A DNA stretch of 64,000 bases from a virus: positions 34,002 through 98,001 of IMG/VR virus record IMGVR_UViG_3300022538_000960. One strand, 5' to 3'. Both the position numbers and the translations under genes were made by a program. This document shows, one piece after another, positions 13,205-38,824 of this stretch; within the stretch, counting starts at the first letter, position 1, and each line of letters begins with the position of its first letter. The notes under the pieces were generated by a model. That model was not told the DNA's origin and did not search any database. It saw only the letters and a program-made list of their open reading frames with translations.

Positions 13205-13237
13205 GGCGGATATAAATTTTAATATCCGCCATTTTTT
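13205..13237 (+). terminator. Rho-independent terminator
   Basis: GGCGGATAT-8nt-ATATCCGCC followed by aTTTTTT. Confidence 0.8.
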
Positions 13238-13255
13238 GTGGGAAAATTGGGAATT

Positions 13256-13269
13256 TGAGCTATAACATT
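13256..13269 (+). promoter_or_regulatory. Conserved motif TGAGCTATAACATT, copy 1 (candidate phage promoter)
   Basis: Exact 14-mer also at 30584 and 44560; here it lies just after a terminator and before an AGGAG RBS. Confidence 0.6.
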
Positions 13270-13284
13270 CGATAGGAGCAAATT

Positions 13285-16184: not shown

Positions 16185-16217
16185 GGCGGGAGGATTTGAT
16201 GATTCCCCCGCCTTTTT
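16185..16217 (+). terminator. Hairpin plus U-tract upstream of the first giant gene
   Basis: GGCGGG-aggat..attcc-CCCGCC-TTTTT. Confidence 0.65.
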
Positions 16218-16228
16218 CATTAATACTT

Positions 16229-19200: not shown

Positions 19201-22200
19201 AAAATTCTTATGGAAACGCGCTTTGGCTATTCCCGCTGCCATTTATGGTTACCGCGCCCTCGATACCTTCCTGACGGTAAATCCACTCTTAGACCACACC
19301 ATGTTTGATGATGGTTTGACATCCGCTGGGGCGCAGGCAATCGGGAAAGCCAATCTTGCTAGGGCCGAAGTGTTTGACACATTGGGAATAACAGACTTTG
19401 CTCAACATATGGAAGGTCTTATGCCTGGCTCTATGGAATCCCCAGCCGCAAAACTATTTAGGGGTGCCGTCCTTCCACTCTTAGGAAGAAGATTTGGTGG
19501 GGGACCGGGACTTATGATTGGACTAGGAGCCGCGGCTGCAACAGGATTTGGACTCCCAGATCTTACGAGATCTGCGGATGAACTTCGAGATGTTTATTCT
19601 GGACGAAAGCTTTTACCTGTCAGGTCTGGCAGATTTTGGGAGACCTCAAAATTGTCGTATTTTGGAGGAAGAATATCATCATTTCAACCAAGTTGGTATA
19701 CGAAAATTGTAAGTCAATATAAATACACGGATGCTGCCTTGGGGACTAAATTAGAATCGCTATTATATACTGGTCCTTTGGGTGCAATAACCGATTCGTA
19801 CCACTACGAGCGTGTTCGGTACCACGATAGACCTTATCCCACGACGGCTCCATTGTTTAGCGACATTCCAATAATCGGATCCGTAGCAGATATGACGATT
19901 GGAAGACTCTTAAAACCCCAGACTATGATGCATGAAGATGAATTAGCTGCTGCCCAGATGGGATTTGATGTGGAGACGAAGAACCGGATTCTGCCGGGAT
20001 ATAATAAGAATACAATGCCACCCCTACATGAAGCCCGCCCAGGCTATTTTGCTCCTAGGCATACTGTCCCATCTGTGAGTATGAAGGGAATGTTGGGAGA
20101 GTCATTCTATAGACTTACTGAAGCGGCTGGACTTCGGGGATTTATGACACAAGCAATATTAGGTCGAGAGGGCATCGGTCAATATGCGCCAATATATGAT
20201 GATGCATCTGCAATCACCAGTTTCGGCCGACAATTTTGGGACCTTCAGGCTGGGGGTGGGCTGGCATCGGAAGCCTGGAGAAGATTGTATCCAAGAGAAA
20301 GATTTAAAAATTTGGTAAATCCAATTCGTAATTTGGCTCCGACGTGGTTGCCGGAAGATTTCAAATTCGGAGATCCGTATACAAAAATCAAAGGGGGTTT
20401 GATATTATTACCATCCCGAGCTCATGAGAAACTTTACAAAGTGCGTCATAATTTCCCAGTTGACCTAGAATATTTCGGATACGAACCAGGAGAAGCTGCT
20501 GGGAGGATGCTGAAGCTGATTAGACCAGAGAGAGAAGAGGAATATCATTACTCGTTCATTAAAGAGTTGGTTCAAAAACAATTACTGATGAATAGACAAT
20601 TGCTGAGCAAGGATGTTTTTCAATTTGATCCTTGGAATAAATTGGAGGGAACTGTTGATGCTATAATAATGAATCAATCAGGGAACCCAGAATTGATGCA
20701 GATAAAGGCGACCACTTCTGAAAAGCTTGGATTTATGCAGCAACCGAAGCCCGCGCACGTTGCTCAACTTAATTTTGCCATGAGACAGATGAAACGGAGA
20801 CATGGACAAATACTCTATGTCGCCTCGGATAATCCAGAACTAACTAAATCCTTCTATGTGGAATACAGCTCCGAACGATTTCATAATGACATGGCAAGAA
20901 TGAATGAAGCCCGAGAATTAGCATCGGATATGCTACTCAAGGGAATTGGTCAGGTTGGAGAATCCTATTCTTATCCAGATAGATTGCAGGTGTTGGCAAA
21001 TTCGGCTCCGTGGAGTCCAGAATATAAGAAGGTTTTGAAGCAATGTAAGATGTTAGATAAATTTGGATTGTTGGATGAAGAAGATCGGGTTAAAGTAAAT
21101 GAATCGCGCAGGCAGCACGACGCAATTATGCGGAAGTTTGATTTTTATCCTCATCGATTTAGTCATGGAAAATGGCTTACGCCTGATCCAATTTATAATT
21201 TGATGTCTCAGAATGTGAATATCAAGGCAGCGGCAGAATATAATGTTGTCGAAAGATTAATGGGAGCGGCATATGAACGACTATTAGAATTTGACATCCC
21301 AGTGGTGCACTCAAAACTGCTACCATATTACACAAGTGAACAAATGTATGAGAGACAGATCGGAGGCAGTTTCAGTGGAAACTGGTCTAGACCCATCCAT
21401 GATTATATAAGACCATGGTGGCATAGCTTCTTATTATCTTCTGGTCCTGCAGAAGCTGCGGCAAAACTTGGATTCGCAGGTGCGCTGTTTGCTGGTCCCC
21501 CCGGCGCCGCCATTGGTGTGAGTGCTGGACTATTATATGGCGGAGGGAGAGCTGTTGCCGGTCGAGGAACTTGGGTCCCAGGAGAAGTTAAGAGAATTCG
21601 GGAAATTGATGAATATTTTGATGCCTTGGAATATATAAAGAATAATCAATTGTATGAACAAACCGGGGATCCGGAATATCTTAAGCGCTCAAGGGAGACA
21701 ATCTATGGGATTACTCCTATGAGCACCCCAGCTGAATTTTATAGAGCAGTGCCGTACATGGAAAGACCATTTTTCTGGTCGTTCGCCTCTATTCAGGACA
21801 AGGCTCAGCAAAATAGAATTAAACAAAGAGTTTCACCGACTATGAGGACGCTTTTGGAACATTATTGGTCTGGAGATAAGAAATTTACGAATCCCATGAT
21901 AGAGGACTATAATCCAAAATTCCGAATGCCAGCAGAAGATTGGATGGGGTGGAGAGAAGATATTCCTCTGGAAGATATTCAGCTCAAGACCGTTAAGAAT
22001 GAAGGACTTGATAATTTTGACTTTGGATTGGGATGGAAACCACAGGAATTAAGAATGCATAATTCCCCATATGCAATCAAGCCGATAGATATTTCTAGTC
22101 CTTCTGGAGTTCCATATGGTCAGGAAGATTTGGATGCTGGCGACATAAAGAATTTTATTCGAAATGTTTTACAAAGGTATGGCGTAATGAATTCGAATGT

Positions 22201-22255
22201 AACCGTTACAAAATCTCAGGGCAAAGGTGCCCACATATCTTTAAATATTACATAA
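16229..22255 (+). CDS. Giant basic virion protein at the tape-measure position, with membrane segments and a PD-(D/E)xK (Cas4/RecB-like) nuclease-like domain; start may be 16199
   Basis: ~2010 aa; Gly/Ala-rich hydrophobic segments; LEGTVDAII...MQIKAT...HVAQLNFAM...GQILYV at about nt 20640-20830. Confidence 0.65.
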   Translation: MYQDYFYEQRENLDYRDRQLPSPLKTIGAGAFSLLAFVVIRGAAVRGSSAASKALSRNLARVVRSVQAPAWAKSYRNLRAAAIRSGRAEAREFGVLAPKDIGIAATVKEIPLIHRARAKFTTTFAKQIESRRQYYYRDLGLRQKELYAALKHGHHPKSLDQRLKALKTFMKPDGAFSARFMAAAGKWGERYAKMIPGFYVADQALGLFSKARPEHLKPAWYNIPGHVAGMVRFGIEFAPIDLAFSGALRVLRYGRAVAARSAQLGVREFPHVREGFTKAVETLHIKGAQWHASISKHWATRRRGAWPSIQELKRGIRDRKAPHSMDIIRLYSDIVKDAKVQRKPYFKMEQQLTQILGVLGMRKDPTLLREMSRNTEIKKAFDEVLAKFERRPKQTFIEYALKTPERPADWAPRRLSTTSYIKRYAKEAQWDPETTNNALKLLGGKELYYGQNILRKGNFSMFNASFAAGKVIDVMGKWKVPFISWHPFRRMMVAGIPRIGIPGKGPAFRILDEKQSALMAEAAANADLNVTRSPQLKVGEYFMRIGDHLFRLSPEKLIERVSGHWRVSVDTITAGERRHFQGLVESQTDYEHTGWLGHLRQKFELGRSPHFIGKRLKEYIIQDFNPESPHVLMHEKGKYVNMLRHLQGDKILSPREQKEFINYSRAVGRHLYGSEQTALEVFHNNQGLRGKVLDILGGVDAKKAKKILNDANIDRVIDDLSLFDYALPETYSQRTIQQVRRALHDVQNLTGPDREFLLRSRSSILEQSSNLTVEDYLMGQYFKKTLENYSQAGKITEGVYDKIFKSIDDTLLAKREKSKAKSLFTSMKINRPMSDYLNVYSDQEVINSLDTVGHLRDIITPNESLLREVFKLDYKSLRESMKINRFMKDTLVPLEIQGFLGPIDEIWRVQGHGAPAAPKDLFGAAPGFGDMLKSDFKKFFRISDSATQINYEPYVTKQSMLLHRWAIRPFNMTLGWIGLDLHYRSNAEFMKKFLWKRALAIPAAIYGYRALDTFLTVNPLLDHTMFDDGLTSAGAQAIGKANLARAEVFDTLGITDFAQHMEGLMPGSMESPAAKLFRGAVLPLLGRRFGGGPGLMIGLGAAAATGFGLPDLTRSADELRDVYSGRKLLPVRSGRFWETSKLSYFGGRISSFQPSWYTKIVSQYKYTDAALGTKLESLLYTGPLGAITDSYHYERVRYHDRPYPTTAPLFSDIPIIGSVADMTIGRLLKPQTMMHEDELAAAQMGFDVETKNRILPGYNKNTMPPLHEARPGYFAPRHTVPSVSMKGMLGESFYRLTEAAGLRGFMTQAILGREGIGQYAPIYDDASAITSFGRQFWDLQAGGGLASEAWRRLYPRERFKNLVNPIRNLAPTWLPEDFKFGDPYTKIKGGLILLPSRAHEKLYKVRHNFPVDLEYFGYEPGEAAGRMLKLIRPEREEEYHYSFIKELVQKQLLMNRQLLSKDVFQFDPWNKLEGTVDAIIMNQSGNPELMQIKATTSEKLGFMQQPKPAHVAQLNFAMRQMKRRHGQILYVASDNPELTKSFYVEYSSERFHNDMARMNEARELASDMLLKGIGQVGESYSYPDRLQVLANSAPWSPEYKKVLKQCKMLDKFGLLDEEDRVKVNESRRQHDAIMRKFDFYPHRFSHGKWLTPDPIYNLMSQNVNIKAAAEYNVVERLMGAAYERLLEFDIPVVHSKLLPYYTSEQMYERQIGGSFSGNWSRPIHDYIRPWWHSFLLSSGPAEAAAKLGFAGALFAGPPGAAIGVSAGLLYGGGRAVAGRGTWVPGEVKRIREIDEYFDALEYIKNNQLYEQTGDPEYLKRSRETIYGITPMSTPAEFYRAVPYMERPFFWSFASIQDKAQQNRIKQRVSPTMRTLLEHYWSGDKKFTNPMIEDYNPKFRMPAEDWMGWREDIPLEDIQLKTVKNEGLDNFDFGLGWKPQELRMHNSPYAIKPIDISSPSGVPYGQEDLDAGDIKNFIRNVLQRYGVMNSNVTVTKSQGKGAHISLNIT

Positions 22256-22264: not shown

Positions 22265-24523
22265 ATGAAAATTTCTGCGATAAACCTGACCGTTAATTCC
22301 ATCAAGGTTTTGGAGAGAAGGTATCTTAAGAAGGACAAAAACGGAAAGGTCGACGAAACCCCAGAAGAGCTCTTCTGGAGGGTGGCTGAGGTTATATCTT
22401 CTGCGGATAAGGATTATGGAGCTACCGAATCTGAGATAAAGAAGGCCAAAGAAGAATTCTATGAGATGATGGCAAAGTTGGAATTTATGCCCAACTCCCC
22501 CACCCTGATGAATGCGGGTAGACCTCTGGGCCAGCTCTCCGCCTGCTTTGTCATACCGATCGAAGATACCATGGAATCCATCTTCACTGCGGTGAAGGAT
22601 ACTGCCCTGATTCACAAAAGCGGAGGCGGAACCGGATTTTCATTCTCAAGATTAAGACCCAAAAATTCGCCTGTGGCATCCACCAGCGGGGTGGCTTCGG
22701 GTCCCATATCTTTCATGAAAGTTATCAATGCCGCAACTGAAGCGGTCAAGCAGGGAGGGACGCGACGTGGAGCTAACATGGCAATATTGAGGGTGGATCA
22801 TCCGGACATTCTGGAGTTTATCTGTTCCAAGGACGATCTGAAAGAACTTACCAATTTCAATATCTCTGTGGCTGTCACCGATGCCTTCACGAAGGCGATG
22901 GAAAAGGATAAGTACTACGATTTGATCGATCCCCGCACCGGAAAAGAATACAATTTGAACGATAAACCAGTTCGGTATAGGGCCAAAGAGATCTTCGACT
23001 TGATCGTGGAACATGCCTGGAGAACCGGTGAACCAGGGATGATGTTTCTGGATAAGATGAATCAGGGCAATCCCATTACCAAAGTTGGATTATATGAATC
23101 CACCAACCCCTGCGGAGAGCAGCCCCTTTTGCCTTACGAAAGCTGTAACTTAGGATCCATCAATCTCTCCAAGATGCTTAAAGTCAGTGGTCAGTCGTCA
23201 GTGGTCAGTGATCAGACCCCACCCACCACTGTTATGGAGGTGGATTGGGACAAATTGGAAACCACGGTCAAAAAGGCGGTTCATTTTCTGGATAATGTGA
23301 TAGACGCCAACAATCATCCGCTTTCAGAAATTAAAAAGAACACCGAAGCCAATCGGAAAATCGGCTTGGGGGTGATGGGTTGGGCAGATATGTTGGTTCA
23401 GTTAAGGATTCCATATAATTCCACTGAGGCGGTGAAGTTAGCTGATAAGGTGATGGGATTTATCAAAGAAAAATCTCACCAGACTTCGTCTGAATTAGGA
23501 AAAGAAAGGGGCAACTTCCCCAATTGGGAGAAAAGCGTCTATTACGAGAAAAAAATCCCCATGCGCAATTCCACCGTTACCACCATTGCGCCGGCAGGAA
23601 CCATCAGCATCATCGCTGGTTGTTCCTCCGGGATTGAGCCGCTTTTTGCCATCTCCTACATCCGCACGGTGATGGACAACACCAAACTGGTGGAGGTAAA
23701 TCCCTTCTTTGAAGAAGAGGCGAAAAAGAGAGGTTTTGACACCAAGGATTTGATGAAGAAAATTGCCCAGAAGGGATCGATTCAGGATCCCGATTTCATC
23801 GGGATTCCCGAGGACGTCAAAAAGGTATTTGTGGTTTCTCATGACATAGCACCGGAATGGCACGTGCGAATGCAGGCCGCTTTCCAGAAGTATACGGACA
23901 ATGCAGTTTCCAAGACTATAAACCTCCCCAACCAAGCCACGGTGGGGGACGTGGAGACTGCTTATAGATTAGCATACCAATTGGGTTGTAAGGGGGTGAC
24001 CATCTATCGGGATGGATCCAGAGAGGCACAAGTGTTATCCACCAAAAAGGAAAAAGAAAAAGAGCAGGAGAAAATCGCTCCCATGGAGAGACCGGCTTGC
24101 CTTTCCGGCATAACTGACAAGATTAAAACCGGATACGGGAATCTTTATGTGACCATCAACAGCTTAAATGGAAAGCCTTTTGAGGTTTTTGCCCAGATAG
24201 GAAAATCCGGATATTCCACCATGGCCGACACCGAAGCCATCTGCAGGTTGATCTCCCTGGCGCTTCGGAGCGGGATAAGTGTGGAAAAGACCATCGAGCA
24301 ACTGATTGGAATTGGCGGCGCATCTCCCATCTATCAGGAGGGCGGACTGGTCATGTCCATCCCGGATGCCATTGCCAAAGTTTTGAATAAGCATTTTGGT
24401 AATGGCCAAAATGCCAATCACGATATAGATCTTACTATGGAATTCTGTCCCGACTGTGGAGCTAAATTGAATCGTGATTCTGGGTGTATTGTCTGCACTC
24501 AATGTGGATTTTCAAAATGTTAA
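22265..24523 (+). CDS. nrdJ: Class II (adenosylcobalamin-dependent) ribonucleotide reductase with C-terminal TSCPD domain and Zn ribbon
   Basis: NSPTLMN, QLSACFV, GGTRRGANM, TNPCGEQPL, ESCNLGSINL, TIAPAGTIS, CKGVTIYRDGSR, CPDCG...CTQCGFSKC. Confidence 0.93.
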   Translation: MKISAINLTVNSIKVLERRYLKKDKNGKVDETPEELFWRVAEVISSADKDYGATESEIKKAKEEFYEMMAKLEFMPNSPTLMNAGRPLGQLSACFVIPIEDTMESIFTAVKDTALIHKSGGGTGFSFSRLRPKNSPVASTSGVASGPISFMKVINAATEAVKQGGTRRGANMAILRVDHPDILEFICSKDDLKELTNFNISVAVTDAFTKAMEKDKYYDLIDPRTGKEYNLNDKPVRYRAKEIFDLIVEHAWRTGEPGMMFLDKMNQGNPITKVGLYESTNPCGEQPLLPYESCNLGSINLSKMLKVSGQSSVVSDQTPPTTVMEVDWDKLETTVKKAVHFLDNVIDANNHPLSEIKKNTEANRKIGLGVMGWADMLVQLRIPYNSTEAVKLADKVMGFIKEKSHQTSSELGKERGNFPNWEKSVYYEKKIPMRNSTVTTIAPAGTISIIAGCSSGIEPLFAISYIRTVMDNTKLVEVNPFFEEEAKKRGFDTKDLMKKIAQKGSIQDPDFIGIPEDVKKVFVVSHDIAPEWHVRMQAAFQKYTDNAVSKTINLPNQATVGDVETAYRLAYQLGCKGVTIYRDGSREAQVLSTKKEKEKEQEKIAPMERPACLSGITDKIKTGYGNLYVTINSLNGKPFEVFAQIGKSGYSTMADTEAICRLISLALRSGISVEKTIEQLIGIGGASPIYQEGGLVMSIPDAIAKVLNKHFGNGQNANHDIDLTMEFCPDCGAKLNRDSGCIVCTQCGFSKC
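23183..23217. repeat. Five tandem heptamers (GTCAGTG-like) inside nrdJ
   Basis: gtcagtg gtcagtc gtcagtg gtcagtg atcagac; encodes an in-frame loop VSGQSSVVSDQT. Confidence 0.8.
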
Positions 24524-24535
24524 TGGGTGATTCTA

Positions 24536-27500
24536 ATGCCAATTATTTATGATCCGGAAGAAGATCAGTTTGTAGATCGGCACGGATATTTATTTCCAAC
24601 TGTCCTATTAGGTGGCGGGTTCCTGGCTTGGAAAAAATATTATGGATCTCCACAGCTTGGAAGGAAATTTTCGCCCCGAGCATTTGTAGGATTTGTTAAA
24701 GATTTAGACCCTCAAGATTATCTAAGGAAATATCTTACAAGACCAGACAAGCCAGAACTCCCTCTCCAACGTAGGTTGGTAGAAACTGCGGTAGAATATG
24801 AAAAAAGCAAATCAGTAATAGAATTTCTCACCGATGCCGATATGAAAACTATTCACTCAATCGGCTCAGCTCTTCCGACTCCGATGAAAGCGGAAGAGAT
24901 AGAATTCAAGCGGCAGGTAATTAGACAATTTAATCCGGTAACTTATGACTTGGTAAGATCCAATGTGGAAAAAACCCAGGAGGTATTCAACGAGTTGCTT
25001 GAAAATGTTGAAGAATCTAAACATTTACAAAGTGTTCTTAAACAACAGCTTGAACGATATAGATTTAAAAAATCTCGCCTATTGATATATTCGAAATTTT
25101 CTGAAATTATCAGTCCGGAAATGCTGAAGAGCGAAGCTGGACATCCTGTTTTGATGAGACAGCTATGGGATATGCAGAAGAAACAAGTTCAGGAAGCTAG
25201 GAGATTGGCGCAGATATTACAAAATGAAACTCCGGAAACTATAGTAAACTTAAAGATTCCAAAAGTTTTGGAGCGCATTGATCCAACCACTATCATAGAC
25301 GAGAGACGAGCGAGACTCCAACCCGCAGGGAAAACGATTAGTGATACGGGCATCAAGTTATCTTATACAAATTATAAATCATTTCTTCAGGAACTCCGAA
25401 GAGCGAGGGTCGATTCCAAAGCTGTGGCTGCAATCGAATCTATAGACCCATTACTAAGGCAGCATCTAAATGAACTTGCCCATACAAAACCTCGAATTAC
25501 GTATGCCCTTCGCGATAATGCATTCAACTTACAGGCCGTGATTAAATTATCTATTCAAACTAAAGAGGAAGGCAAAAGGGAGATCATTAATCTGAAAATT
25601 CCTCTTGCTCGTGGTGGGAGATTAAGAATCAATGGGACCGGGTACATCCCTCAGAGATACCGAGGCATTAAGCCGCTTATCCCAGAAATAGAACGAATTG
25701 AATCTGATATCTACGAGTCGGTGATTCGTAATTTGAATAAGAGATTCAAAAGTGAAGTTTGGCATAAAGTTATGGATGGAGATGCCCGTGGAGGTGAACG
25801 ATCCATTAATGCATTGATTAAGGAACCGATTGATGAAAGATTAATCATCGAATCGGGGCGCCCAGTCCATGATTTCATTGAGCAGAATATAATCCAGGAT
25901 GCTAGACTCGGCTATCTGTCGCCTACACGTGGATTCAGAACTGAAGATGAGCGGCGTGTGGTGCTTGATCGATTCAAAAAAATGCAAAAACTTAAATTAC
26001 TTCTATTGGAGGGTGGAGGAAAGTTAAAATTACCAAATAGATATGCATTTATAGATTTTGAAACATTCGGAACAAAAACGAATTACCTGCCGCATCAAGT
26101 GACCGTAGGTATAATTGAAAATGGCGCAGTCGTTGATTGGTATACAGGAAAAATCGATCCTCGAAGCATTAATACCAACTATGCTTTTCCGGAAGTTGAT
26201 TTGAAGTTGTCATTCAAGGGAAAAACGAGAGAACAAGTTATGAAGGAATTCGATGAAATTGGACAACCTATTAGTAAGATTCGGAGAGATTTGGAAGAAT
26301 TCCTGCGGAAAAATGCCAAAGGAGGAAAGCTTCCAGTTGCTGCTTGGAGTGCTGGATTCGATGTGGATCGGGTAATGGGGCAGCAATTCTTGGGGGCCAA
26401 AGCATATTTGGGAGAAACTTGGGATCCGATGGATCTCCAAAAAGCTATTGATCCAGATGTTCAAGCTTCAGTTTCTCTTAGATCCGTTGGGCGATCTCGT
26501 AAAATCTTTGTGCCAACTTCTTCGAAAAAAGATTTGATTCTTAATAAAAAAGTTATTGAATTATTTAAAAAGAATCGCAATTTAATGTCTATCTTGAAGG
26601 ACAAAGATCCTGGATTTCATGGTAAGTTAATGAAGGCAGTTTCCGAAAAACAAATAAGGGATCTGGTAATGCACGAGGCATCAATTGATGTACTTGTAGC
26701 AAATAAGGTCTTTCAGGATATTGCGAAAGATATTAATTTGCATTCATCTGTAGTGATGCGTGATTTGAATGCAATGTTATTGTCTTATCATAGAGCCCTG
26801 ACCCGCTCAATAAATCCAATAGGTATCAATCACTGGACAACCAGAGCACTGGGATCTAATTTCCCCTCACTTTCTCCAGCTCAAATTTTGCAAGGTAAAT
26901 TTACAAAATTTGATATCAGAGATTTAGCTCCCCTTACTAGGTTAGGCTTAGATCCAACACGGCCATTTTATCAACAATGGGTTTCAGCGCACTTAATTAC
27001 CAAAGATGTTCCCGACTTGATTACGAAAACGTATAAGAAGATTGCTGATAAGCATGGCGAGCTCTTTAAATCGATAGATACATTAACAATTTTTAATCCA
27101 TTAACTGCAGAAAGTGCAGGCCTAATAGATTTTCAGGCTGCGGATGAAATGGCAATTAAAATGGGGACAAAAGAGATTAGAATTCCGCATACGGGCAAAT
27201 TGAAGCTCATACCCGAACTCAGAGAATATTTTGAACAAATAAAATCAACAAGGAGTCCGAGAGAGCGTGAAATAGTTTTATCTAAATTAAGACAGAAAAT
27301 GGCGAAGTCATATCAAAAGGGATCTCATTTCCAGGAATGGTTGCCTGGGTATACCTTACTTGGAGAAGCAGAAGGATTTACATTTAATACCTCGACTCCA
27401 TTGATGTCAACAATCGAGAACATTGAATACAATAATGAGAACAAGGAAATAGCCATTCGTCTCCAGACGGCGAGCCGTCCTGAAAAGTATGGGCATCCAA

Positions 27501-30500
27501 TGAAAGTTTTTGCCCGTGAACATAAGGGGATGTTGACCCCTGTAGAGGGACTGAGATCCATTACATGGGTTGATGCGGTTCTTCGTAAAGATCTTGTAAA
27601 ACGCGGTAGGATGTCATTTATGTTGGGGCAAATTCAGAGATTAACCAGGAATTTTCAAGCAATTCATTCGAAATTAACCCCAGCTCAGACATTTCAATTT
27701 TTCGAAACAGTTAAGACTTTTGTAAGTAAGATAAACTCGATGGGGGGAATTAAATTAGATTGGCAAGTTAACCGAGGCAAACTTCAATTTATAGATGAAA
27801 TAACAGGTAAAGAGTGGCAAAAATTGGATCTTGGGAAAATCGAAAAAAACTGGTTGCAATTTTCCGAAGGTGGATGGGTTAAATTCATGAAAGAATATTC
27901 CCAAAAGATCCGGCATATGATGATTTCGTTTGGAGTTAAATATTCTAGGCATGATCCTCGCCTGCCCTATTGGACTCAGGGCCAAATTGAATCGATGTTA
28001 TCGACTGAGTGGGGTCGACGATTCCCCAAAAAGTTAGTGTTTGCTGATCTGTCCCGGGCTGAACAAAATGCATTCCGAGAGAAAATAGAGGTAGAAATGC
28101 ATGATCAGCTATCAAAAAGTGAATTATCCAAGTTTTTTACCAAAGCAGAATTAGAGCGATGGAAATCCGGAACCTTAATGAAAGGTCATCTTTCTTTGAT
28201 TCAGCTCTTTGGTGGTTCTTGGGGGGTTTTAGAAGTTACCCCAGCATCGAGGGCATATGAGGCCGGCGAATTATACGCAAAGGGAACCGATGTTGCAATT
28301 CCTCGTCTAAGTGAATTAGTTATATCAGGACCAGTTGGACAAAGATTGGCGCGATCATTTACCCCCCAGCAACGTGATATGATGAATTATATGTCAAACA
28401 TTCAACCCCTTTTAAGATATGGTGTTTTGCCGGAATCCCATTATCCGATTGTAAAAGCTTCGGAAATAAATCTTGACCCTATGACAACTCACTTGGGATT
28501 TAAGCAAGAAGTTGGGATTATAGAAGATAAATCCTTCAGAATTAAGTGTGTTGAAACTGGAGAAATTTTTAATTCTCTCGAAGAAGTTCCTGGCCGTTAT
28601 TTGAAACAATATACACTGAGGCCCATGGGCATGAATGCCTATATGCATCCTAAAACTTTGGAATCATTGTACGGACAGCAGCCAACCATAGCAGAATTTA
28701 ATATAGGGAAGAAGACAGTTTATGTTCCCAGACCAGCATTATCATTTATTCGGGGTGCCCCAGCGAAAGTTACAAAGAGTGGGGACCCTTATACAATAGT
28801 TGGGAAGGAAATCCAAACATTTAAAAACCTCTTTGTGATGGCTGCCGATTATAAGTTAATCGAAGATAAAGAGGCGAAGAAACTTGCCGAACGGGAATTT
28901 TTTGCAAGAGTTGAAGATTATAGAAATATGTTATTGACCGATAAGTCCGCCTATATAAAACTTACCAAGCCGACTATTCCAGGAGTACAAGGTAAAATTT
29001 CCATGGCATTCCCTCCAGGAATGGCCAAGGCATTGGGATTGCCGCAGGATATGTTCGCTCATATAACTACGGGATTTGGAGTCCAGGGTGTGTCCATGGA
29101 GTCGATTGGAGAGGAGTATTTTAATAAGGCCATGGATGCTCACCAGATAAAAATCGGGCCAGACACCGGAAAATTTAGGGGTGGCACAGGATCGATTTAT
29201 CCAAATAAATTGGCATTTAGAGAGTCCCTTAGTAAAGGCGAGGAACTGCTGGCTGGGACCCTTATTCGAATCCCACCAGAAAGTAAATTCGCAGCTTTTG
29301 ATACGTTAATTGACGTCAGAAGGGATCAAGCCGCTGGGATGCGTCTTCAGCTTAGAGAGGCTATGATGGCCCATTTCGATTTTGACGGGGATATTGCGCC
29401 ACTAGGATTTGCGAATCTTACACCGGAAGACCAGGAGCAGGTTTTGAAGGATCTTGTGAATAAGCAACATATTGATCGCGAGGCACATAAAACATTAGCT
29501 GAAAGAATAAAAAAGTTGCATGCCAATGTTCTTGAATATGAAACCAGCAAAGATGCTGCAACCAAGAAGCAACTTGTCAAAGAGCTTGAGCAAATTCAAG
29601 AACTCGAAAAGACAATGAATGTCAATGTCTATGGCCAGGGTATTTGGGTGAGGGAAGCCAAGCCGGGAGTAACTCCAAAGGAAATTAAATTAGGAGTTGG
29701 CGATGAGATGAGGTTCCGGAAGATGAATTTGCACCAGTTTATGAAGGGATTACCATCTATTGATCTTCCAGGAAAGTTGATTAGCCTTCCGGGTGAAGAA
29801 TTGGAGCTACATCTTTCTAATATGCTTACAAAGACGGCTACAGCGTATTCTTATCGAGAAACAATGAGAATGAGAGCGTCCGGCAGATTATTTGGCGGAA
29901 AGTTGACCCAACAATACTTGGATTTGTATGATCAACTGGTTGGGAAAGTTACCGCATTCAAAAAAATTCCGCTTGCGGATGCAGAGGCTTTGACTCGGGC
30001 ATTTATCGAGCCAACGGCTGCTGAATCAAAAACGATCATGACGAAATATTTGGACAAGGATGCAGAGCAACTTTGGTCACAATTTAAAGATTGGCACACC
30101 GAATTGGGTCGCCTTGGGGTGAGAAGACAAATCAATGACTTGATCAGCTCTGGGATGAAGCGCTCCCCTATCACAGGTGGGCAATTGGCTTTGTGGGGAC
30201 CGAGTGTGGAACTCCCCACAGGAAAAAGTCGCGCCATCCTAGATTTCTGGGGCAAGGAAAAATTCCTTGATAGTTTCAAACGGCATGGAAAAAAAGGTGG
30301 GATTGCAATAGCATTGGCTGCCCTTATCGCTCCAATTTTCTTGCCACATGATAATTTATATGACAAAGACGGATATCCAATAATTCCGACTAGTTTCAAC
30401 ATTTCGCGTCCAATATTCCCTTCGCCCATTCATGTGGTTCCAAATGATCCAACATCTCATCCAGTGAGGACATTTAGGCCCCAAATTATGGATCCCTTAC

Positions 30501-30580
30501 TTGTTAACTTTGGCTCTGACAATAATTTAACAATGAGACGGAATAGTGGGCAGTGGCCGAATAAATTGAGAAATTATTGA
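24536..30580 (+). CDS. Single-chain two-barrel (DPBB) RNA polymerase fused to a DEDDh 3'-5' exonuclease; candidate virion RNA polymerase
   Basis: ExoI FIDFETFG (26054), ExoII AAWSAGFD, ExoIII HEASID (26672); beta-type MKVFAREHKGML..VDAVL (27500); beta'-type LIRIPP...MAHFDFDGD (DFDGD at 29378-29392). Confidence 0.75.
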   Translation: MPIIYDPEEDQFVDRHGYLFPTVLLGGGFLAWKKYYGSPQLGRKFSPRAFVGFVKDLDPQDYLRKYLTRPDKPELPLQRRLVETAVEYEKSKSVIEFLTDADMKTIHSIGSALPTPMKAEEIEFKRQVIRQFNPVTYDLVRSNVEKTQEVFNELLENVEESKHLQSVLKQQLERYRFKKSRLLIYSKFSEIISPEMLKSEAGHPVLMRQLWDMQKKQVQEARRLAQILQNETPETIVNLKIPKVLERIDPTTIIDERRARLQPAGKTISDTGIKLSYTNYKSFLQELRRARVDSKAVAAIESIDPLLRQHLNELAHTKPRITYALRDNAFNLQAVIKLSIQTKEEGKREIINLKIPLARGGRLRINGTGYIPQRYRGIKPLIPEIERIESDIYESVIRNLNKRFKSEVWHKVMDGDARGGERSINALIKEPIDERLIIESGRPVHDFIEQNIIQDARLGYLSPTRGFRTEDERRVVLDRFKKMQKLKLLLLEGGGKLKLPNRYAFIDFETFGTKTNYLPHQVTVGIIENGAVVDWYTGKIDPRSINTNYAFPEVDLKLSFKGKTREQVMKEFDEIGQPISKIRRDLEEFLRKNAKGGKLPVAAWSAGFDVDRVMGQQFLGAKAYLGETWDPMDLQKAIDPDVQASVSLRSVGRSRKIFVPTSSKKDLILNKKVIELFKKNRNLMSILKDKDPGFHGKLMKAVSEKQIRDLVMHEASIDVLVANKVFQDIAKDINLHSSVVMRDLNAMLLSYHRALTRSINPIGINHWTTRALGSNFPSLSPAQILQGKFTKFDIRDLAPLTRLGLDPTRPFYQQWVSAHLITKDVPDLITKTYKKIADKHGELFKSIDTLTIFNPLTAESAGLIDFQAADEMAIKMGTKEIRIPHTGKLKLIPELREYFEQIKSTRSPREREIVLSKLRQKMAKSYQKGSHFQEWLPGYTLLGEAEGFTFNTSTPLMSTIENIEYNNENKEIAIRLQTASRPEKYGHPMKVFAREHKGMLTPVEGLRSITWVDAVLRKDLVKRGRMSFMLGQIQRLTRNFQAIHSKLTPAQTFQFFETVKTFVSKINSMGGIKLDWQVNRGKLQFIDEITGKEWQKLDLGKIEKNWLQFSEGGWVKFMKEYSQKIRHMMISFGVKYSRHDPRLPYWTQGQIESMLSTEWGRRFPKKLVFADLSRAEQNAFREKIEVEMHDQLSKSELSKFFTKAELERWKSGTLMKGHLSLIQLFGGSWGVLEVTPASRAYEAGELYAKGTDVAIPRLSELVISGPVGQRLARSFTPQQRDMMNYMSNIQPLLRYGVLPESHYPIVKASEINLDPMTTHLGFKQEVGIIEDKSFRIKCVETGEIFNSLEEVPGRYLKQYTLRPMGMNAYMHPKTLESLYGQQPTIAEFNIGKKTVYVPRPALSFIRGAPAKVTKSGDPYTIVGKEIQTFKNLFVMAADYKLIEDKEAKKLAEREFFARVEDYRNMLLTDKSAYIKLTKPTIPGVQGKISMAFPPGMAKALGLPQDMFAHITTGFGVQGVSMESIGEEYFNKAMDAHQIKIGPDTGKFRGGTGSIYPNKLAFRESLSKGEELLAGTLIRIPPESKFAAFDTLIDVRRDQAAGMRLQLREAMMAHFDFDGDIAPLGFANLTPEDQEQVLKDLVNKQHIDREAHKTLAERIKKLHANVLEYETSKDAATKKQLVKELEQIQELEKTMNVNVYGQGIWVREAKPGVTPKEIKLGVGDEMRFRKMNLHQFMKGLPSIDLPGKLISLPGEELELHLSNMLTKTATAYSYRETMRMRASGRLFGGKLTQQYLDLYDQLVGKVTAFKKIPLADAEALTRAFIEPTAAESKTIMTKYLDKDAEQLWSQFKDWHTELGRLGVRRQINDLISSGMKRSPITGGQLALWGPSVELPTGKSRAILDFWGKEKFLDSFKRHGKKGGIAIALAALIAPIFLPHDNLYDKDGYPIIPTSFNISRPIFPSPIHVVPNDPTSHPVRTFRPQIMDPLLVNFGSDNNLTMRRNSGQWPNKLRNY

Positions 30581-30800: not shown

Positions 30801-33800
30801 ATGAAAACGTATATTCCTCTTGAGTGGCGACCTGGGATCCATGGTGGATTCAGCAATCCGGATGACAGCAGAAATATAGTGCAACCTCTTCTTGACCTAC
30901 TAAATTATTTGAACCGACGGTGTCAAGATCGAGGGATGAATCACATTATTATTACTTCTGGAAGACGGGGTGTTGAATACAACGCCGGTATTGGAGGAAG
31001 TTCAACGAGCTATCACCTGACTGGGCACGCCGTGGATATTGCCGTAGTTGGGCGATATAATAGATGGGAGCAGGCAATGATTGATAATTGGCTGCATACT
31101 GTATATGGTGGACAGCTCGCCCAAGTTTTATTTCATAGTACGGGGAAAGGAAAGACCAGCACGTATCATTTGCATATAGGAATCCGGAAGGGATCAGAGG
31201 GGATGGGTCCACTTTTGGAGACGGAAAGTAAAAGTGAGGGGATTATTGAAGGAAAAAAGCCAGGTGCCAATTCCTATAGTATTATAAGTGATAATATTAC
31301 TGGATATACTGAAACAATTGCGACTCAGATTCCTCTCGATATTTACAAAACAAGCTACGAATTAATCGAAGACGTTGCTGAGGAAGAAAAAACTGACGCC
31401 CTAGTTGCATTGGCGCAGAAGCCAGGATCATTTAAATTTGGAACGCGGTGGTTAACAGTGCCTCCTACATCAATTGCTTTTACCGAACAGAATAATATTG
31501 TCGGGATTCCAACCCTTCGTACCAAAGGCAATGTATATTGGAGGACTGGCATTAATTCAATAAATATAGATCTTGAATTTTTGTTCCCGGGGTTAATTCA
31601 AATTAATGACGAATTGCGGCATATAATTGCTCAAATTAAAAGGTGCCCATTCTTACCTCTTGAGAACTACTATCTACATTCACTGATATTCCCGGAATTG
31701 AAATCTGCTAAGCCGCAACCCGATATTCCGTATGAATTTACCACGGAAGAGAAGTCGAAACATGAGAAACAGACTGGCACCCAGGACAGACTTCAGCCCC
31801 AGCAATGGCGGTTGAAAAATAAGAAAATTATGGATATAGTTAAATCCGGGGATGAAAAAAGCTTGGAGGAGTTTATAGAAAATGGTAAAAGACATGGGTA
31901 TTTTACTCAAGATATTGAATCCCAGGAGGATAGAGAGAGGAGGACTGAACAGCTCGAAGGACTGCACGAGTGGATGAAGAAATATAGACATATTGACGTA
32001 GATGAGACCAGCGGACTAAGCTACAGAGATCAGCAGATGGTGTCAGCAATACGGTCAATATCGGTCTCTTCGGTTCCAGGATTTCCCAGAACGCTCCAAA
32101 TGAATTGCTCTTGCGATATTTTCAATTATTTCCCTTATACGTCAGCATTTAGCTTTATAGAGGATGAAACGAAAAATGACAATCCGGTTTTCAACATTTC
32201 CAAAAGTGTCCTATTTGGAAAATATTACAAAGGAATGCTCACCAGGAATAATGCCCAGGAATTCAAAGATGCGTTTGAATCGACAACGAAATTGGAAGCA
32301 GTTGGGTCCGATGAACGTATGGATTATTTGCATCTAAGATATATCTATTCCGAGGAATTAAGAAACCGCTCCCAATTGGCTCAAAGAGCCTTATTGGAAT
32401 ACATAGAATGCCTCAAAAATTATGGAGAAAGCTACGAAGCAGCTCCAGCCGCAGAATTATATGAAAATCTTTTTATATTTCTTACGCATCCTAGTTTCGG
32501 AGGATGGCAGAATCTAGCTGATGTCCCAGGGAACGTGGTAGATATTGTAAAAGAATTAGGAAAAGATGCCGTAATCGCAGGAAAAAGCATTATTGCTGTA
32601 ATAAAATTTTACCAAGATTCTTTTGGCGAATATTTGCTTGGAATAAATGCGAATGATGAAATATATGTTATAGGCACCAGGAGGGGAATGGAATATTTCC
32701 TCCCGCTTAAGGACGCAGTTAGAAATCCCCAGTATCGGATGAGATTGTTGTCTTATATCAAAGAATATTCGGTTAAGATCAGCTCATTAAAGTATGAGCA
32801 GCGGGATCTGAAGTTTGGAGATCAGAATTCTCAAATAGTTGGGGTTTCTGCATCAATGGAGACAAAGCTTGTACCAATGAATATATTGGCATTTACGGCA
32901 CCGACTTTTCAACATCTCGGAAATTCAGAATGGGTTACTACGCTGACAATAGAAACATCGAATCCGAATTTGATAAGAGAACTTCGCATGATGACCGAAC
33001 GCCTTAATCAAACCGCATTATCGCAGATTGCTGTGTTGCCCGAAATTCGAGATTATGCCGATCTCTCCGCACAAATTGTCGAAGGCCCATTTTTTAAACT
33101 TTTAGGGATAGAGAATGTAATCCCCGGCAACTTCAGATATTCAACAGTGGAAGGAAAACCGGGAGTGTTTCATATTCAAATCGATTTTGTACAATCTGAT
33201 TTGCAATTGAAAACATACGAGGCGCTTCAAGCTCCGGCTTATTTTTCATCTGATTTCATCAAGCAGTTTATTGAGCTGATCCCAACTTCAGTGCTTGAGA
33301 ATATTTCTTCAAAACTTGGGGCTGACTGGGATAACTATCATACAGTTCATGAATATAAGATTGGTGCCCGCCCCTTGACTCAAGCTTTGGAAAACTATCC
33401 AAAATGGTCAAAGTTTTTATTTTATCTATGTAAACCAATTCCATCTAGCCTATCCGGTAAAAGAATCCCAGTCTATACATTCTTGTTGGAAAATTTTACA
33501 TTGGATCAGTTAATTGAAAAACCTGAACCAATTAGTTCCACGAAGAAATTTTTATTATCCCCAGTTATTGGCCCATATATTACAGCCAAGATATTATCAG
33601 AAATTGATTTTAGTAGGAAAAATCTTTTTACTCAGACAATATTTGCGCCGATTAGGGATCTCTCTAAAGTATTGATTTCGCCTCTGCAGGCGAATATTAA
33701 ATTTAAAAATCTATTTAGTGAAGCGATTTTCGCGACATATAGAGGAGCCGTCGGGCGTCAGCTCAAGGCGGTGTTGAATGAAGCTCTAATTGGGGAAGAT

Positions 33801-36800
33801 ATTCCTCCCGAATTAGAAATTGATTCAACGGAAAGTGGACGAAATCTTCTTGGATTATTGCGAGAGAACCAAAAGCGGCTCCATATCAGAAATTCGACAT
33901 ACCCGGATTTGGAACTCCCGATTACTGCTGACTCCCCCGATTTTTGGTTTTTCCGAGAACCCTTATACAATGATGAGATTCGGGAATTTGCCAACGCTAT
34001 GGTGAATGGACATGAAGAGATGGTTATCAAATTAGCGGAAATAAATTCTGCCAACAAACAGGGGAAAGCAACTACTCATGTGGCTAAACTGAATAAAATG
34101 GCTAAAGAGGCTAGAATCAAAGACATCACGGTCACGCAAAAACTCCGGGATACTTATATGAGCTACCTAAGAGATGCAAGTGAGGATTTGCAATTCGGAA
34201 GAGACAAATCTAAAGATCTTAAAGAAAATGCAAATCTTATGATGGAAACAAGAAGGTCGCCGGTTCAAAAGTACTTAGGCCGCGCAGATGAAGCCACCTT
34301 AAGGAGCAGGCTGGCAAGAATTAAAGATGATATGAGATACTATGACGATTCGTTGAAAATTATAGATCTAGGGGGATATGAAAATATTGATTTTGAATCT
34401 GCGGCCGACCTGTTGGATACAACAATAGTTTTGATGAAAATGTGGGGGATTTATACTCCGAGGGATGCCCAGCTTGAACGGCAGATGCTCCAAGATGCTA
34501 TGGAGCTTGATGAAAATAAAACTTTAAGACTAGGTCGGGCATTCCCAACTTTCAAGTTATATTTTATAGAGAAAGATAAAGAGGAATGGCTGTTATTCGA
34601 CGATTTTTATGGATATGGCGCAGTAAAAGAGATTCAAATTAGAAAAACTCGAAAATCCGCAATTCATACCGCGGTGATCTCATTGTCGAATATTACGAAT
34701 GTGCTTCAAGATATCCATGCTCCAAGAAATGAAAATATTTCCAAATCAGAAACTGCAGAAGAGCAACCGGATGTTGATACTATGATGCTCCAAGAAGGTT
34801 GTGAAATTATGATTAAGATGGGTTATGAAAATGATTCCAATAAATTGAAAATTGTATTTCAAGGATCCATTGTGAGCATACAGCCCGGACCGGAATTGCG
34901 ATTCGTTGCACAAGGATGGGGTGCAGAACTTGCACAGCCGATCCAGAATTTTAGTATTGGAAAGTGGAGTACAATACGAGATTTTGGAGATGTGTCGACC
35001 GCAATTTTAAATAAAGTTTCCGGATTACGACATTTTGGAACAACGTATAATTTAGCAGAAATGTTTGATGATCTGCCAAATGTTCGGTATTTTTCTGATC
35101 ACAGGGAAACATATGTTGGTAGATTAAAGAATTGGGCGCTCCAGGGATTAGGGCTCAATCCCTTACTTGATCACAGGGATGATAATATTTGGATGCCATA
35201 TCATACTCCGCCTACCATTTGGCCATTGGCTCATTATGTCGAAGGGAAAGGGTTTGCATTCGATTGGAGAGTATATAATAAAACTGCCTGGGGGGCGCTT
35301 GATGAAGTATTAAAATATATGCCGGGGTACATCATAAAAATTTTACCTTATAATGAGGATAATTTACAATCTGCCAGATGCACATTATATATAGGTCCGA
35401 GAGATGGCTATTATATGGCTACTGATGACTCAGAGGTTGTCGAAAGATCCTCGGAATCTGAGAAATATCAACAAAACAGGCTGCTATGGTATAAGGATGT
35501 AAAGAATGTAACTGCGTCGACCGAAAATGAATTAATTGAGAAACTTAAGAACTTTGATATTGATTATGATAATAAGGATACTGACATTTTCAAAAATTTT
35601 GTTGATAAAAGTATCACATATCAAAATGGGGATTATCGTTTATTAAAAGCCGATCCTGGCGATCCTTGTTTATGTATAAAAACAAAAGATATTTCTGATT
35701 TCTTCACTGTTGAAACTTTGATTCAGCATCCTGGGTTAGCTTTCGCCGCCTTGATTCCTGGATTGCCACAACTTATTGCTGGGGCATCTATTGTCTCAGA
35801 AGATATAGCACGGCTGATTTCTGGTAAGGAGATTTGTTTAGATTGGGCGCCAGATCTTATAAAAAGAAATTATTTTGAATTGATTAATAACCCAAATACA
35901 GTTTCGACTACAAGACTATATGACGTGTACGATAAAATTAATTATGATAAATATGAACTAATCTATGGCACGGGTGGGTTCTTTGATCCATTAATTAATT
36001 CTAGGAATCGATTTGTTTATGGAAAAGATGAAAATCCAAGAAGACTAGCTGGAAAACGGGGGTGGAAACGTGCATGTAAGACCCATTTTATTGATAGTTA
36101 TCATCATATAATCGAAAATAATATGAAAGCTTCACGCGAAAATATGTATAATAAAGTTCATCTGATTTACCCAAAGGGTGAGCCTCAAATGGCCGCATTC
36201 GAAACACATCCCGAAGCTGGCGATTTATCTGAATTCGAAATGCTTGCAGATGATAATATAAAACCGGATATGATAAGAACTCATAAATTATTTTTCACAA
36301 ATATTGACGTAGACAGGACAAGAAATTTTGTAGATACCATTACAGGCATTCTTCAAGGAATCGGCCAGATGGTTGGACGTAATGATCGGGGCAATTATCC
36401 TGATATTCCACCTTATGCTGTTGTTGCAAATTCGATACTTGCTGAAGATCTCAAGGATATGTACGATGGAGAAATTATTATTTTGATGGATCCGAATATT
36501 GACGTCCATGATATCGTATATATCTATGATGATGTAAATGAAATTTATGGCCCAGTCGGGGTAAAAGAAGTTTATCATTATTTTTCCATGGCACATGGGG
36601 CTTATACAGTGATTGTACCTGACCTTATGTCATATCCCAGTAACTTAGAACAAACTGTCGAATTAGGTTACGCTTCAGCATTATATTCCGCAATGGTTAA
36701 GGTAGCTCTTGGTGGAATAGTATTTGGTGGGGGAGCCTCGCTTTTGGCGGGGAAATTGCTTGGTCCGTGGACCGGAGTGGGCATTGCTGGATTCACTGCA

Positions 36801-37664: not shown

Positions 37665-38135
37665 ATGGAGACGGATATATGTTTGTCATACGCAGGGGGT
37701 GGGATTATTACGGATGATGGGGATCTGAAGCTGACGCAGGATTTGGATGCCTTATCAAGAGAAATCAGTAGGATAGTGCGGACAGTCAATCCCGCATGGA
37801 AAATATATCCTAATATTGGCGCGGGAATTGAGGAATTTGTTGGAGAACCAAATACTCGCGGAATCGCTTTGGAAATTACAAAGCGCCTGAATTATATATT
37901 AAACCAGAATCAAATAGCTTATCCCGGGCGCCTATTCGCGCGCGTAGTCCCATCTGGAGATGAAACCTTGATGATCTTCATTTTTTTGAAAGATAGTAAA
38001 GGAAGAATTCTTATTGACAAAGAAGTATTCAATTTTAAGGATGGTGTGGCTGGGCATATTTATGATCCTAGCGAAGTCAAAGAAATTGTGCCTAATATCA
38101 GACATGCAATTCCAACAAATCCTTATCTGCAATGA
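37665..38135 (+). CDS. Baseplate wedge / sheath initiator, gp25-like
   Basis: DGDLKL....L..EI...V.T...W..YPNIGAGIEEFVGEPN motif; synteny. Confidence 0.7.
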   Translation: METDICLSYAGGGIITDDGDLKLTQDLDALSREISRIVRTVNPAWKIYPNIGAGIEEFVGEPNTRGIALEITKRLNYILNQNQIAYPGRLFARVVPSGDETLMIFIFLKDSKGRILIDKEVFNFKDGVAGHIYDPSEVKEIVPNIRHAIPTNPYLQ

Positions 38136-38824
38136 AAAATAAATTATGGTCTCGGAAATATAATTGCTGTCAAAATTGTGGAATCATTGAAATTCCACAT
38201 AAAGGGAATGGTTTATGTATCAAATGTTATGACAAAAAGTTCCAACATGGATATTATTTAATAAATAAAGAAAACTATAAAATTAAAAATAAACGTTATA
38301 GATTGTCTCATGAAGCATATTTTATAATGAAACGCAAGGAATATCATTACCCAAACCACAAAAAATATAATGAAAAACGAAAATTGAAATATCAACAAGA
38401 TAAAAGTTACTATATAAAATATTATGAAGCAAATAAATTGGAAATTTCTAGAAAACGCAAATTAAAATATTATCAAAATAATGAATTGGAAAAAACTAAG
38501 GAATATTATCGAACTGATAATGGCAGAGAAACCAGCAAAATGAATTCCCGCAAAAGAAGAGCAAGAAAAAGAAATCTTAATTTTTGGACAAAAGAAATGA
38601 CCCAAAGATGGTGGTGGATGCTTGATGCCACTGAAGGATATTGTCCAAATTGTGGAAATTATTTTGGAATTGATAAACTTCAGATGGATCACATAATTCC
38701 ATTATCTAAAAATGGAATTCATCATATAAATAATGTTCAAGCCTTATGTCAACATTGTAATTGTTCAAAAAATAATATACTTTATAGAAAGGAGGATTAT
38801 TTTGCGCTTTCTATCAAAATCTAA
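38132..38824 (+). CDS. HNH homing endonuclease 2 (paralogue of 5794-6429)
   Basis: CPNCG...LQMDHIIPLSKNG.HHINNVQALCQHCNCSKN; very AT-rich; overlaps both neighbours. Confidence 0.88.
   Translation: MKNKLWSRKYNCCQNCGIIEIPHKGNGLCIKCYDKKFQHGYYLINKENYKIKNKRYRLSHEAYFIMKRKEYHYPNHKKYNEKRKLKYQQDKSYYIKYYEANKLEISRKRKLKYYQNNELEKTKEYYRTDNGRETSKMNSRKRRARKRNLNFWTKEMTQRWWWMLDATEGYCPNCGNYFGIDKLQMDHIIPLSKNGIHHINNVQALCQHCNCSKNNILYRKEDYFALSIKI

Follow-up and report, generated by a model that had tools for sequence, protein, structure and literature searches.

Candidate single-chain two-barrel RNA polymerase joined to a DEDDh exonuclease-like domain in the tail module of a contractile-tailed phage

The target gene and its motifs

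We analyzed a 64-kb window of viral DNA, the right-hand part (positions 34,002 to 98,001) of the 98-kb IMG/VR viral record IMGVR_UViG_3300022538_000960, and asked what is encoded by one of its giant genes, ORF (open reading frame) B, referred to here as the target gene. All of the large genes in the window are on the + strand and together make up a contractile-tail virion module. Because the 98-kb record is rated only 38% complete by CheckV, the phage genome is probably jumbo-sized. The target reading frame, 24527-30580 (+), is open for 2017 codons without an internal stop, and the ATG at 24536 is the likely start because the homologues begin at MPIIYD; residue numbers below count from the GTG at 24527, not from this ATG. 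An initial annotation, made from the sequence before this analysis, had described a single ORF of ~2015 amino acids (aa) at 24536-30580, and we found both the open frame and every motif string that it quoted, each at the codons it gave. The features of the target are as follows.

24536-30580 (+), target gene (ORF B), coding for 2014 aa counted from the ATG, in a frame that opens with the GTG at 24527
26024-26716 (+), DEDDh-type 3'-5' exonuclease-like domain, aa ~500-730, recognized from its motif set and from matches to PF16473 below the cut-off
27479-27616 (+), candidate beta-type (Lys-bearing) barrel motifs with the invariant residues P991-x-K993-x6-K1000-G, D1016, and (K)R1026-x-R1028
28964-29416 (+), candidate beta'-type (Asp-bearing) barrel with the invariant columns G-V-x-G-K1490-[IV]-S..P-G, I-R1581-x-P1583-x-E1585, and H1616-x-D1618-x-D1620-G-D1622
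29378-29392 (+), DFDGD, putative metal-binding Asp triad, D1618-D1622, within HFDFDGD
29810-29881 (+), candidate bridge-helix-like segment LSNMLTKTATAYSYRETMRMRA, aa 1762-1785, with T1768, K1769, and R1783 invariant
30287-30349 (+), C-terminal hydrophobic segment GKKGGIAIALAALIAPIFL(PH), aa 1921-1941, from the Kyte-Doolittle profile

The middle part of the target (aa ~500-730) very probably contains a DEDDh exonuclease fold, as judged from an ordered motif set and repeated Pfam matches. The ExoI string FIDFETFG lies at aa 508-515 (D510 codon at 26054, E512 codon at 26060), the ExoII string AAWSAGFD at aa 605-612, and the ExoIII string HEASID at aa 716-721 (H716-x4-D721), which places DxE, D/E, and H-x4-D motifs in order within ~210 residues. 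The initial annotation had called this a complete DEDDh set; all of its strings are present, but the motif II Asp is not kept, since D612 occurs in the window's own lineage and is replaced by Glu in both distant lineages (P0005/P0008 and P0006). Weak family support comes from Pfam PF16473 (Rv2179c-like 3'-5' exoribonuclease), which matches the domain in the window with an E value of 8e-5 and 22.8 bits, under the cut-off of 27, and which matches 4 of 5 family members at 20.8 to 22.8 bits, with a best E value of 7.3e-6. A profile search of PDB with the exonuclease region found nothing. The domain thus resembles the DEDDh (DnaQ/RNase T-like) exonucleases of PF16473 in its motif order and in these repeated matches, and it differs from them in scoring below the curated cut-off, in carrying Glu at motif II in two lineages, and in being embedded in a 2,000-residue protein of a virion module.

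The C-terminal half carries motifs like those of two-barrel RNA polymerases (RNAPs), and the order along the chain is exonuclease, Lys motif, and then Asp motif. The Lys motif GHPMKVFAREHKGML includes K993 (codon at 27503) and K1000 (codon at 27524) and is followed by WVDAVL..KRGRM at aa 1015-1029, while LIRIPP is found at aa 1579-1584, upstream of DFDGD. The initial annotation had read these strings as RNAP motifs in beta-then-beta' order, and we found that they are colinear, and invariant over deep lineages of the family. At the level of short motifs, P-x-K-x6-K-G-[MVL] resembles GDKMAGRHGNKGV of beta, MKLAAQPLKGV of phi14:2 gp66, ..RLPWVKGLL of YonO, and ..KG[VT][IV] of P23-45 gp64 and gp96, all of which share K-G-[VLM]-type residues. 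In the target, the K-G-[VLM] motif has a basic residue 7 positions before it and precedes the Asp motif in the chain. In addition, D1016-A-V-L..K-R-G-R-M resembles D-I-V-L..P-S-R-M of beta, and every single-chain two-barrel RNAP has its domains in this order, a Lys barrel before an Asp barrel. An attempt to align the Lys barrel across families gave no reliable result; the likeness of the Lys motif is a motif-level one. The remaining likenesses to beta' were judged by eye. The resemblances of G-V-Q-G-K-I-S..P-G to beta' S-G-R-S-V-I..G-P and of LTKTATAYSYR to bridge-helix LKTANSGYLTRR are leads only, and LSNMLTKTATAYSYRETMRMRA is a candidate bridge-helix-like segment from its likeness to beta' TALKTANSGYLTRRL, in a region where the AlphaFold2 model is of low confidence.

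Each of the 6 full-length family members has a single DxDxD in its ~2000 residues, at the homologous site, and in all 6 the I-R-x-P-x-E motif begins its R-x-P exactly 37 residues before D1618. For comparison we assembled a reference set containing E. coli beta and beta', four YonO-like proteins (including SPbeta-type YonO and 0305phi8-36 gp99), P23-45 gp64 and gp96, and phi14:2 gp66 with eight crAss-like orthologues. In 16/16 reference Asp-barrel sequences, R-x-P lies 35 to 44 residues before the first Asp, a hydrophobic strand precedes R-x-P, and another follows the triad; the target has the same pattern. Chaban et al. filtered two-barrel RNAP candidates with '[RK]xPx{20,100}DxDxD' (PMC10770324, Suppl. 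Data 4), and because the target has a single DxDxD with R-x-P 37 residues upstream, it falls within this published filter, as does its whole family.

Conservation across a rare family

We sought relatives of the target by a word-index search of 5.8 billion proteins and by running HMMER over the full set of 1.84 billion cluster representatives, as well as in IMG/VR, JGI metagenomes, and GTDB genomes. All of these scans together gave three deep lineages and one fragment, with the following identities.

Window's own lineage (P0003, P0004, L002, L003), 83-85% identity
Second lineage (P0005, P0008), ~34% identity
Third lineage (P0006), 29% identity
Fragment of 189 residues (P0007), 46% identity

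The full-length members have 2000 to 2055 residues and can be aligned end to end, with 27 to 34% identity between deep lineages. A tblastn search of 50,697 phage records with the target protein gave no match, nor did a PHROGs search, and the ESM Atlas gave no usable match.

Over the three deep lineages, the residues of the proposed sites are largely unchanged. In the exonuclease, D510, E512 (of IDFE), F611, H716, A718, and D721 are invariant. The invariant residues of the Lys motif are P991, K993, K1000, D1016, R1026, and R1028, which are also unchanged in the fragment P0007, and the Gly after K1000 (KG) is kept except for a Ser in P0006. The Asp-bearing region has three invariant clusters, namely, G1486, V1487, G1489, K1490, P1497, and G1498; I1580, R1581, P1583, E1585, and A1589; and H1616, D1618, D1620, G1621, and D1622. 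The residue between the first two Asp residues differs among homologues (DFDGD, DYDGD, DPDGD, or DADGD), as expected for a DxDGD site. Thus, the DFDGD and Lys residues, whose conservation in homologues the initial annotation had made a test of its reading, are conserved at 27 to 34% identity. In a sliding-window profile, conservation peaked over aa 481-580, which belong to the exonuclease, and also over aa 1381-1540, 1561-1600, 1701-1740, and 1801-1840.

Gene order and position in the tail module

The other genes of the module that bear on the target are listed here.

2641-4002 (+), major head protein-like gene of the virion module
8444-11161 (+), sheath gene of the tail module
11184-14604 (+), three tube paralogues after the sheath gene
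16196-22255 (+), giant ORF A, 2019 aa, homologue of the 0305phi8-36 virion protein gp145
22265-24523 (+), ribonucleotide reductase (RNR), 752 aa, with Ribonuc_red_lgN, Ribonuc_red_lgC barrel, and TSCPD domains
30801-37082 (+), giant ORF C, 2093 aa, with an N-terminal M15 peptidase and homology to the gp147 baseplate hub
38132-38824 (+), HNH gene between ORF C and the baseplate wedge region
38733-40037 (+), baseplate wedge gene of the tail module

The sheath gene, tube paralogues, hub-like giant ORF, and baseplate wedge gene around the target confirm the proposal of the initial annotation that it is embedded in a tail/baseplate module. By sheath and hub, the nearest cultured relatives are Moorella phage MTATph1 and Bacillus phage 0305phi8-36 with its kin. 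We also checked the 'moraphage' jumbo lineage (PMC12619734), which belongs to a different, T4-like group. The gene order in 0305phi8-36 is sheath gp139, tube gp140/141, gp142-144, and then the giants gp145 (1930 aa), gp146 (2537 aa), and gp147 (the hub). ORF A matches gp145 with a BLASTP E value of 3e-26 and in more colinear segments, and ORF C is homologous to gp147 and has an M15 peptidase domain (E value of 2e-9). Because ORF A is homologous to gp145 and ORF C to gp147, the target is, as judged from synteny, the positional counterpart of gp146, which is annotated as a 'hypothetical tape measure protein'. Both gp145 and gp146 are recorded as virion proteins by mass spectrometry, and gp147 is listed without such a note. 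The order of ORF A, target, and ORF C is kept in L004, a relative with 34% identity in the target, where the ORF upstream of the target homologue is 44% identical to ORF A. The target gene also follows the tail tube/chaperone genes and precedes the baseplate hub gene, which is the tape-measure position, and its protein has no PHROG or Pfam tape-measure match. This synteny suggests that the target protein would be packaged in the virion and injected.

The hydrophobic segments of the giants would fit such a route. GKKGGIAIALAALIAPIFL is the sole 19-mer region of the target with a Kyte-Doolittle mean above 1.5 and is a possible membrane-inserting helix, and similar Gly-rich hydrophobic stretches occur in the flanking giants A and C; together, these segments would fit insertion into the host envelope on ejection.

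The RNR gene between ORF A and the target looks like a recent insertion in this phage because tblastn found no copy of it within the 10 kb flanking the target in L002 and L003, two relatives with 85% identity. In L004, only a 119-aa ORF (L004:16322-16681) matches the RNR, in its C-terminal TSCPD part and with 62% identity. In ORF A, aa 1477-1578 have PHROG matches to Cas4/PD-(D/E)xK-type exonuclease families (E values of 3e-7 and 7e-4), so that the cassette to which the target belongs may carry a second nuclease-like domain. ORF C is itself a candidate cell-wall-cutting hub or tape-measure protein.

Two observations concern the rest of the module. Three successive ORFs (11184-11837, 12293-13171, and 13285-14604, all +) match phrog_9206, which has the label 'major head protein'; their place in this module, behind the sheath gene, is that of the tail tube, like the tube and tube paralogue gp140/gp141 of 0305phi8-36. 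Two HNH/endonuclease VII-like genes lie within the structural module (5794-6429 and 38132-38824, both +), and both are probably mobile homing endonucleases.

Relation to known polymerases, competing readings, and proposed role

Among the closest known systems is P23-45 gp96 (PMC10770324), which, like the target, is a giant protein encoded at the tape-measure position of a tail module. It has FRNP..x..VDFDGD with a spacing of 38, compared to 37 in the target, and a K-G-[TV] motif upstream, and it is a tape-measure-fused virion two-barrel RNAP with a proposed role in transcription of the first genes during DNA entry (PMC10770324). The two proteins have no detectable sequence similarity. P23-45 is a siphovirus whose RNAP is the N-terminal ~1200 residues of a 5002-aa tape measure, whereas the target phage is contractile-tailed and the RNAP-like part of its protein is C-terminal and preceded by the DEDDh exonuclease; none is detectable by Pfam in gp96(1-2000). 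Another is phi14:2 gp66 (bioRxiv 10.1101/2020.03.07.982082), a virion protein of ~2,000 residues that carries its two barrels in a single chain, has genes for further giant virion proteins next to its own, and, like the target, shows only short motif-level likeness to cellular RNAPs. The YRIP..x..SDFDID of gp66 has a spacing of 39 compared to 37, and its Lys motif MKLAAQPLKG compares with PMKVFAREHKG in the target. The differences are that gp66 belongs to a podovirus-like crAss phage and not a contractile-tailed one, that its connector between the barrels is ~140 residues and not ~450, that it has no exonuclease domain by Pfam, and that profile similarity between the two is not significant.

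YonO of SPbeta and gp99 of 0305phi8-36 have the single-chain two-barrel layout that we propose for the target, with LRSP..x..FDNDGD. However, the YonO-like proteins are 840 to 1220 aa long, non-structural, and encoded outside the virion module (in 0305phi8-36, gp99 is a separate gene near the genome end), whereas the 2014-aa target is encoded within the tail module. In addition, gp99 matches Pfam RdRP (E value of 1e-18) and the target does not, and YonO is without proofreading activity and without an exonuclease domain by Pfam, in contrast to the exonuclease-like domain of the target. Single-chain relatives such as YonO have no recognizable trigger loop and no transcript-cleavage proofreading. 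The positional counterpart 0305phi8-36 gp146 (L007:16624-24237) shares the slot and size class of the target (2537 versus 2014 aa) and has an ExoI-like YLDIETTG near aa 1222, with possible ExoII- and ExoIII-like strings further on; hhalign of gp146 against the target exonuclease profile was negative, and unlike the target, gp146 has no DxDGD and no Pfam domain. The initial annotation knew of no characterized RNAP fused to an exonuclease, which agrees with the lack of a Pfam exonuclease domain in gp66, gp96, and YonO, and the papers searched describe no RNAP-exonuclease fusion. To our knowledge, no cellular or viral two-barrel RNAP carries a DnaQ-type exonuclease, and endonucleolytic cleavage at the polymerase site is used instead.

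We judge it moderately probable that the target contains a two-barrel polymerase core, and we lean slightly toward the whole picture, in which a single-chain two-barrel RNAP from a new family is fused to a DEDDh exonuclease and delivered by the virion. Several results weigh against this picture. The motifs quoted by the initial annotation, their invariance, and the R-x-P...DxDGD spacing stand; comparisons using Pfam, PDB sequences, HMMER, Smith-Waterman, and hhalign gave no significant match to any known RNAP family. The Pfam RNAP families PF00623, PF00562, and PF05183 have no match in the whole 98-kb record; phmmer and hmmsearch of the target against PDB sequences gave nothing or noise; and target-family hidden Markov models (HMMs) did not match E. 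coli beta/beta' or gp99 in HMMER. Smith-Waterman comparison with E. coli catalytic segments was not significant, with the DFDGD site ranking only fourth in the window, and the top beta match was rejected as spurious because it falls on the C-terminal hydrophobic segment. With crAss, P23-45, beta, and beta' profiles, hhalign gave unrelated top matches, none significant. A pan-family Asp-barrel HMM ranked the target family among decoys, and in a leave-one-family-out control, the target family scored 0 to 3.5 bits, within the decoys, while beta', both P23-45 enzymes, and most crAss enzymes were recovered at rank 1 with 6 to 15 bits. The distance from the Lys to the Asp motif, by motif positions, is 625 residues in the target compared to 356 in gp66 (K1005-D1361) and 274 in YonO (K261-D535). 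The two strongest conservation peaks outside the exonuclease, aa 781-880 and 1221-1280 (26867-27166 and 28187-28366), match no nameable motif and exceed the putative catalytic motifs in conservation (an example within them is ASRAYEAGELYAKGTDVAIPRLSELVISGP, with 16 of 40 residues invariant), and the Lys-motif and DFDGD windows are absent from the top peaks of the profile. Neither BLASTP nor hhalign detects similarity between the target and gp146. Finally, ~250,000 windows were read in the scan that led to this one, so a chance constellation of motifs somewhere is not negligible, and the loose filter pattern is common by chance, occurring in 10.6% of target-protein shuffles and in 7/270 decoy ORFs.

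These negative searches lower the odds of an RNAP only modestly because the validated RNAPs gp66, gp96(1-2000), and YonO likewise have no Pfam match. The pan-family HMM test is insensitive, since genuine YonO, at 0.0 bits (rank 29), was also indistinguishable from decoys in the leave-one-family-out control, and Fpv2 scored 0.5 bits. The best placement of this HMM on the target was aa 1614-1624 (conditional E value of 0.03), and among the family profiles compared by hhalign, only that of YonO had its top local match at the DxDGD segment (P = 0.055). AlphaFold2 models of aa 840-1900 from six sequences and of aa 1470-1745 from seven sequences had mean predicted local distance difference test (pLDDT) values of 43.9 and 56.5, respectively; the motif segments were below 50 in both, which makes the models uninformative on a double-psi beta-barrel (DPBB) fold, and a fold search with the aa 840-1900 model gave helical matches at noise level only. 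We saw no other RNAP-sized gene or RNAP family match in the available 98 kb, a record from which 62% of the genome is missing.

The strongest competitor, which we hold to be unlikely though far from negligible, is a tape-measure or ejection protein in which the DEDDh exonuclease is the sole enzymatic module and R-x-P...DxDGD and K..KG belong to some other conserved site, such as a structural contact or a site for metal or nucleotide binding in a different fold, that is RNAP-like by chance. The position shared with gp146 fits this explanation, as do the absence of significant profile similarity to RNAPs, the chance frequency of the loose filter pattern, and the location of the strongest conservation peaks outside the RNAP-like motifs. 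Enzymatic domains also occur in phage tape measures, such as the metallopeptidase in the P23-45 record and the peptidoglycan-hydrolase motif in TM4. Against it, the tight pattern R.P.{32,41}D.D[GIV]D is rare (0.19% of 20,000 target-protein shuffles and 0/270 decoy ORFs), and lineages with only ~30% identity keep the signature residue for residue and with identical spacing, as they keep the Lys/Arg set that precedes it in the right order. An RNAP triad would explain why the third Asp and the Gly of DxDGD are invariant. By motif logic only, other readings of the Asp motif fit less well: an archaeo-eukaryotic primase (AEP) would need a downstream His motif, absent here, a Toprim site would be DxDxxG, and a Pol-beta nucleotidyltransferase would read G[GS]..DhDh.

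The two other explanations accept the enzyme and question its product or its delivery, and we consider each of them very improbable. An exonuclease of the DEDDh type followed by a polymerase is the usual layout in proofreading DNA polymerases, and the target could accordingly be a two-barrel polymerase that makes or repairs DNA, for example, at the ends of the injected genome, with the DnaQ-type domain as a classical proofreader. Since YonO is without proofreading, fusion to an exonuclease is not known as a feature of RNAPs, and the two-barrel core of archaeal PolD does make DNA (PMC6355029). However, the known phage two-barrel enzymes are all RNAPs, the best Pfam match of the exonuclease is to an exoribonuclease family (Rv2179c-like), and the target sequence says nothing on sugar selectivity. 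Alternatively, a real enzyme might not be packaged at all, its gene being a non-structural one that merely resides in the tail module. As the RNR gene between giants A and B illustrates, genes without a structural role can enter this part of the module. Yet the RNR is absent from the flanks of relatives, while in the relative with 34% identity the target still has a gp145-like gene on one side and a hub-like gene on the other; the positional counterpart gp146 was found in virions by mass spectrometry; and the C-terminal hydrophobic segment is like those of the flanking giants.

In the reading that we favor, a virion-delivered two-barrel RNAP, the target protein would be built into the tail along with giants A and C, pass out through the tube when the tail contracts, and enter the host with the DNA. 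Residues ~500-730 would be the DEDDh 3'-5' exonuclease and residues ~940-1830 a very divergent single-chain two-barrel RNAP, in which a Lys-bearing DPBB (K993, K1000, and R1026/R1028) would be joined by a connector of ~450 residues to an Asp-bearing DPBB (R1581-x-P ... D1618-x-D-G-D) that would bind the catalytic Mg2+. Without the host RNAP, the polymerase would copy the first phage genes of the entering DNA into RNA, an activity that has been shown for crAss-like gp66 and proposed for the tape-measure-fused gp96. As for its substrate, the attached exonuclease might remove misincorporated or backtracked RNA 3' ends or, alternatively, process DNA or RNA ends at the entry site. That an injected RNAP with its own DnaQ-type exonuclease would achieve transcript proofreading or 3'-end rescue in the style of a DNA polymerase is a speculative idea, drawn by analogy, to which we assign a low probability. 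The proposed system would be of the crAss gp66 and P23-45 gp96 kind, in a new sequence family, in a contractile-tailed jumbo phage, and fused to an exonuclease.

If the exonuclease alone is real, the target would still be a new case of an ejection or tape-measure protein loaded with an enzyme. If the polymerase reading is correct, two-barrel RNAPs delivered by virions would occur in contractile-tailed jumbo phages as well as in crAss-like podoviruses and Thermus siphoviruses, which would support the view that early transcription enzymes are repeatedly hidden in giant tail or cargo proteins. The target would then represent a further deep two-barrel family, invisible to Pfam, PHROGs, and profile searches, and such deep families bear on the origins of RNA polymerases and of the eukaryotic RNA interference (RNAi) polymerases. 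In this enzyme class, a DEDDh exonuclease joined covalently to the polymerase would be a new accessory, and it would raise the question of whether a minimal RNAP without trigger-loop-based cleavage can outsource proofreading to an exonuclease.

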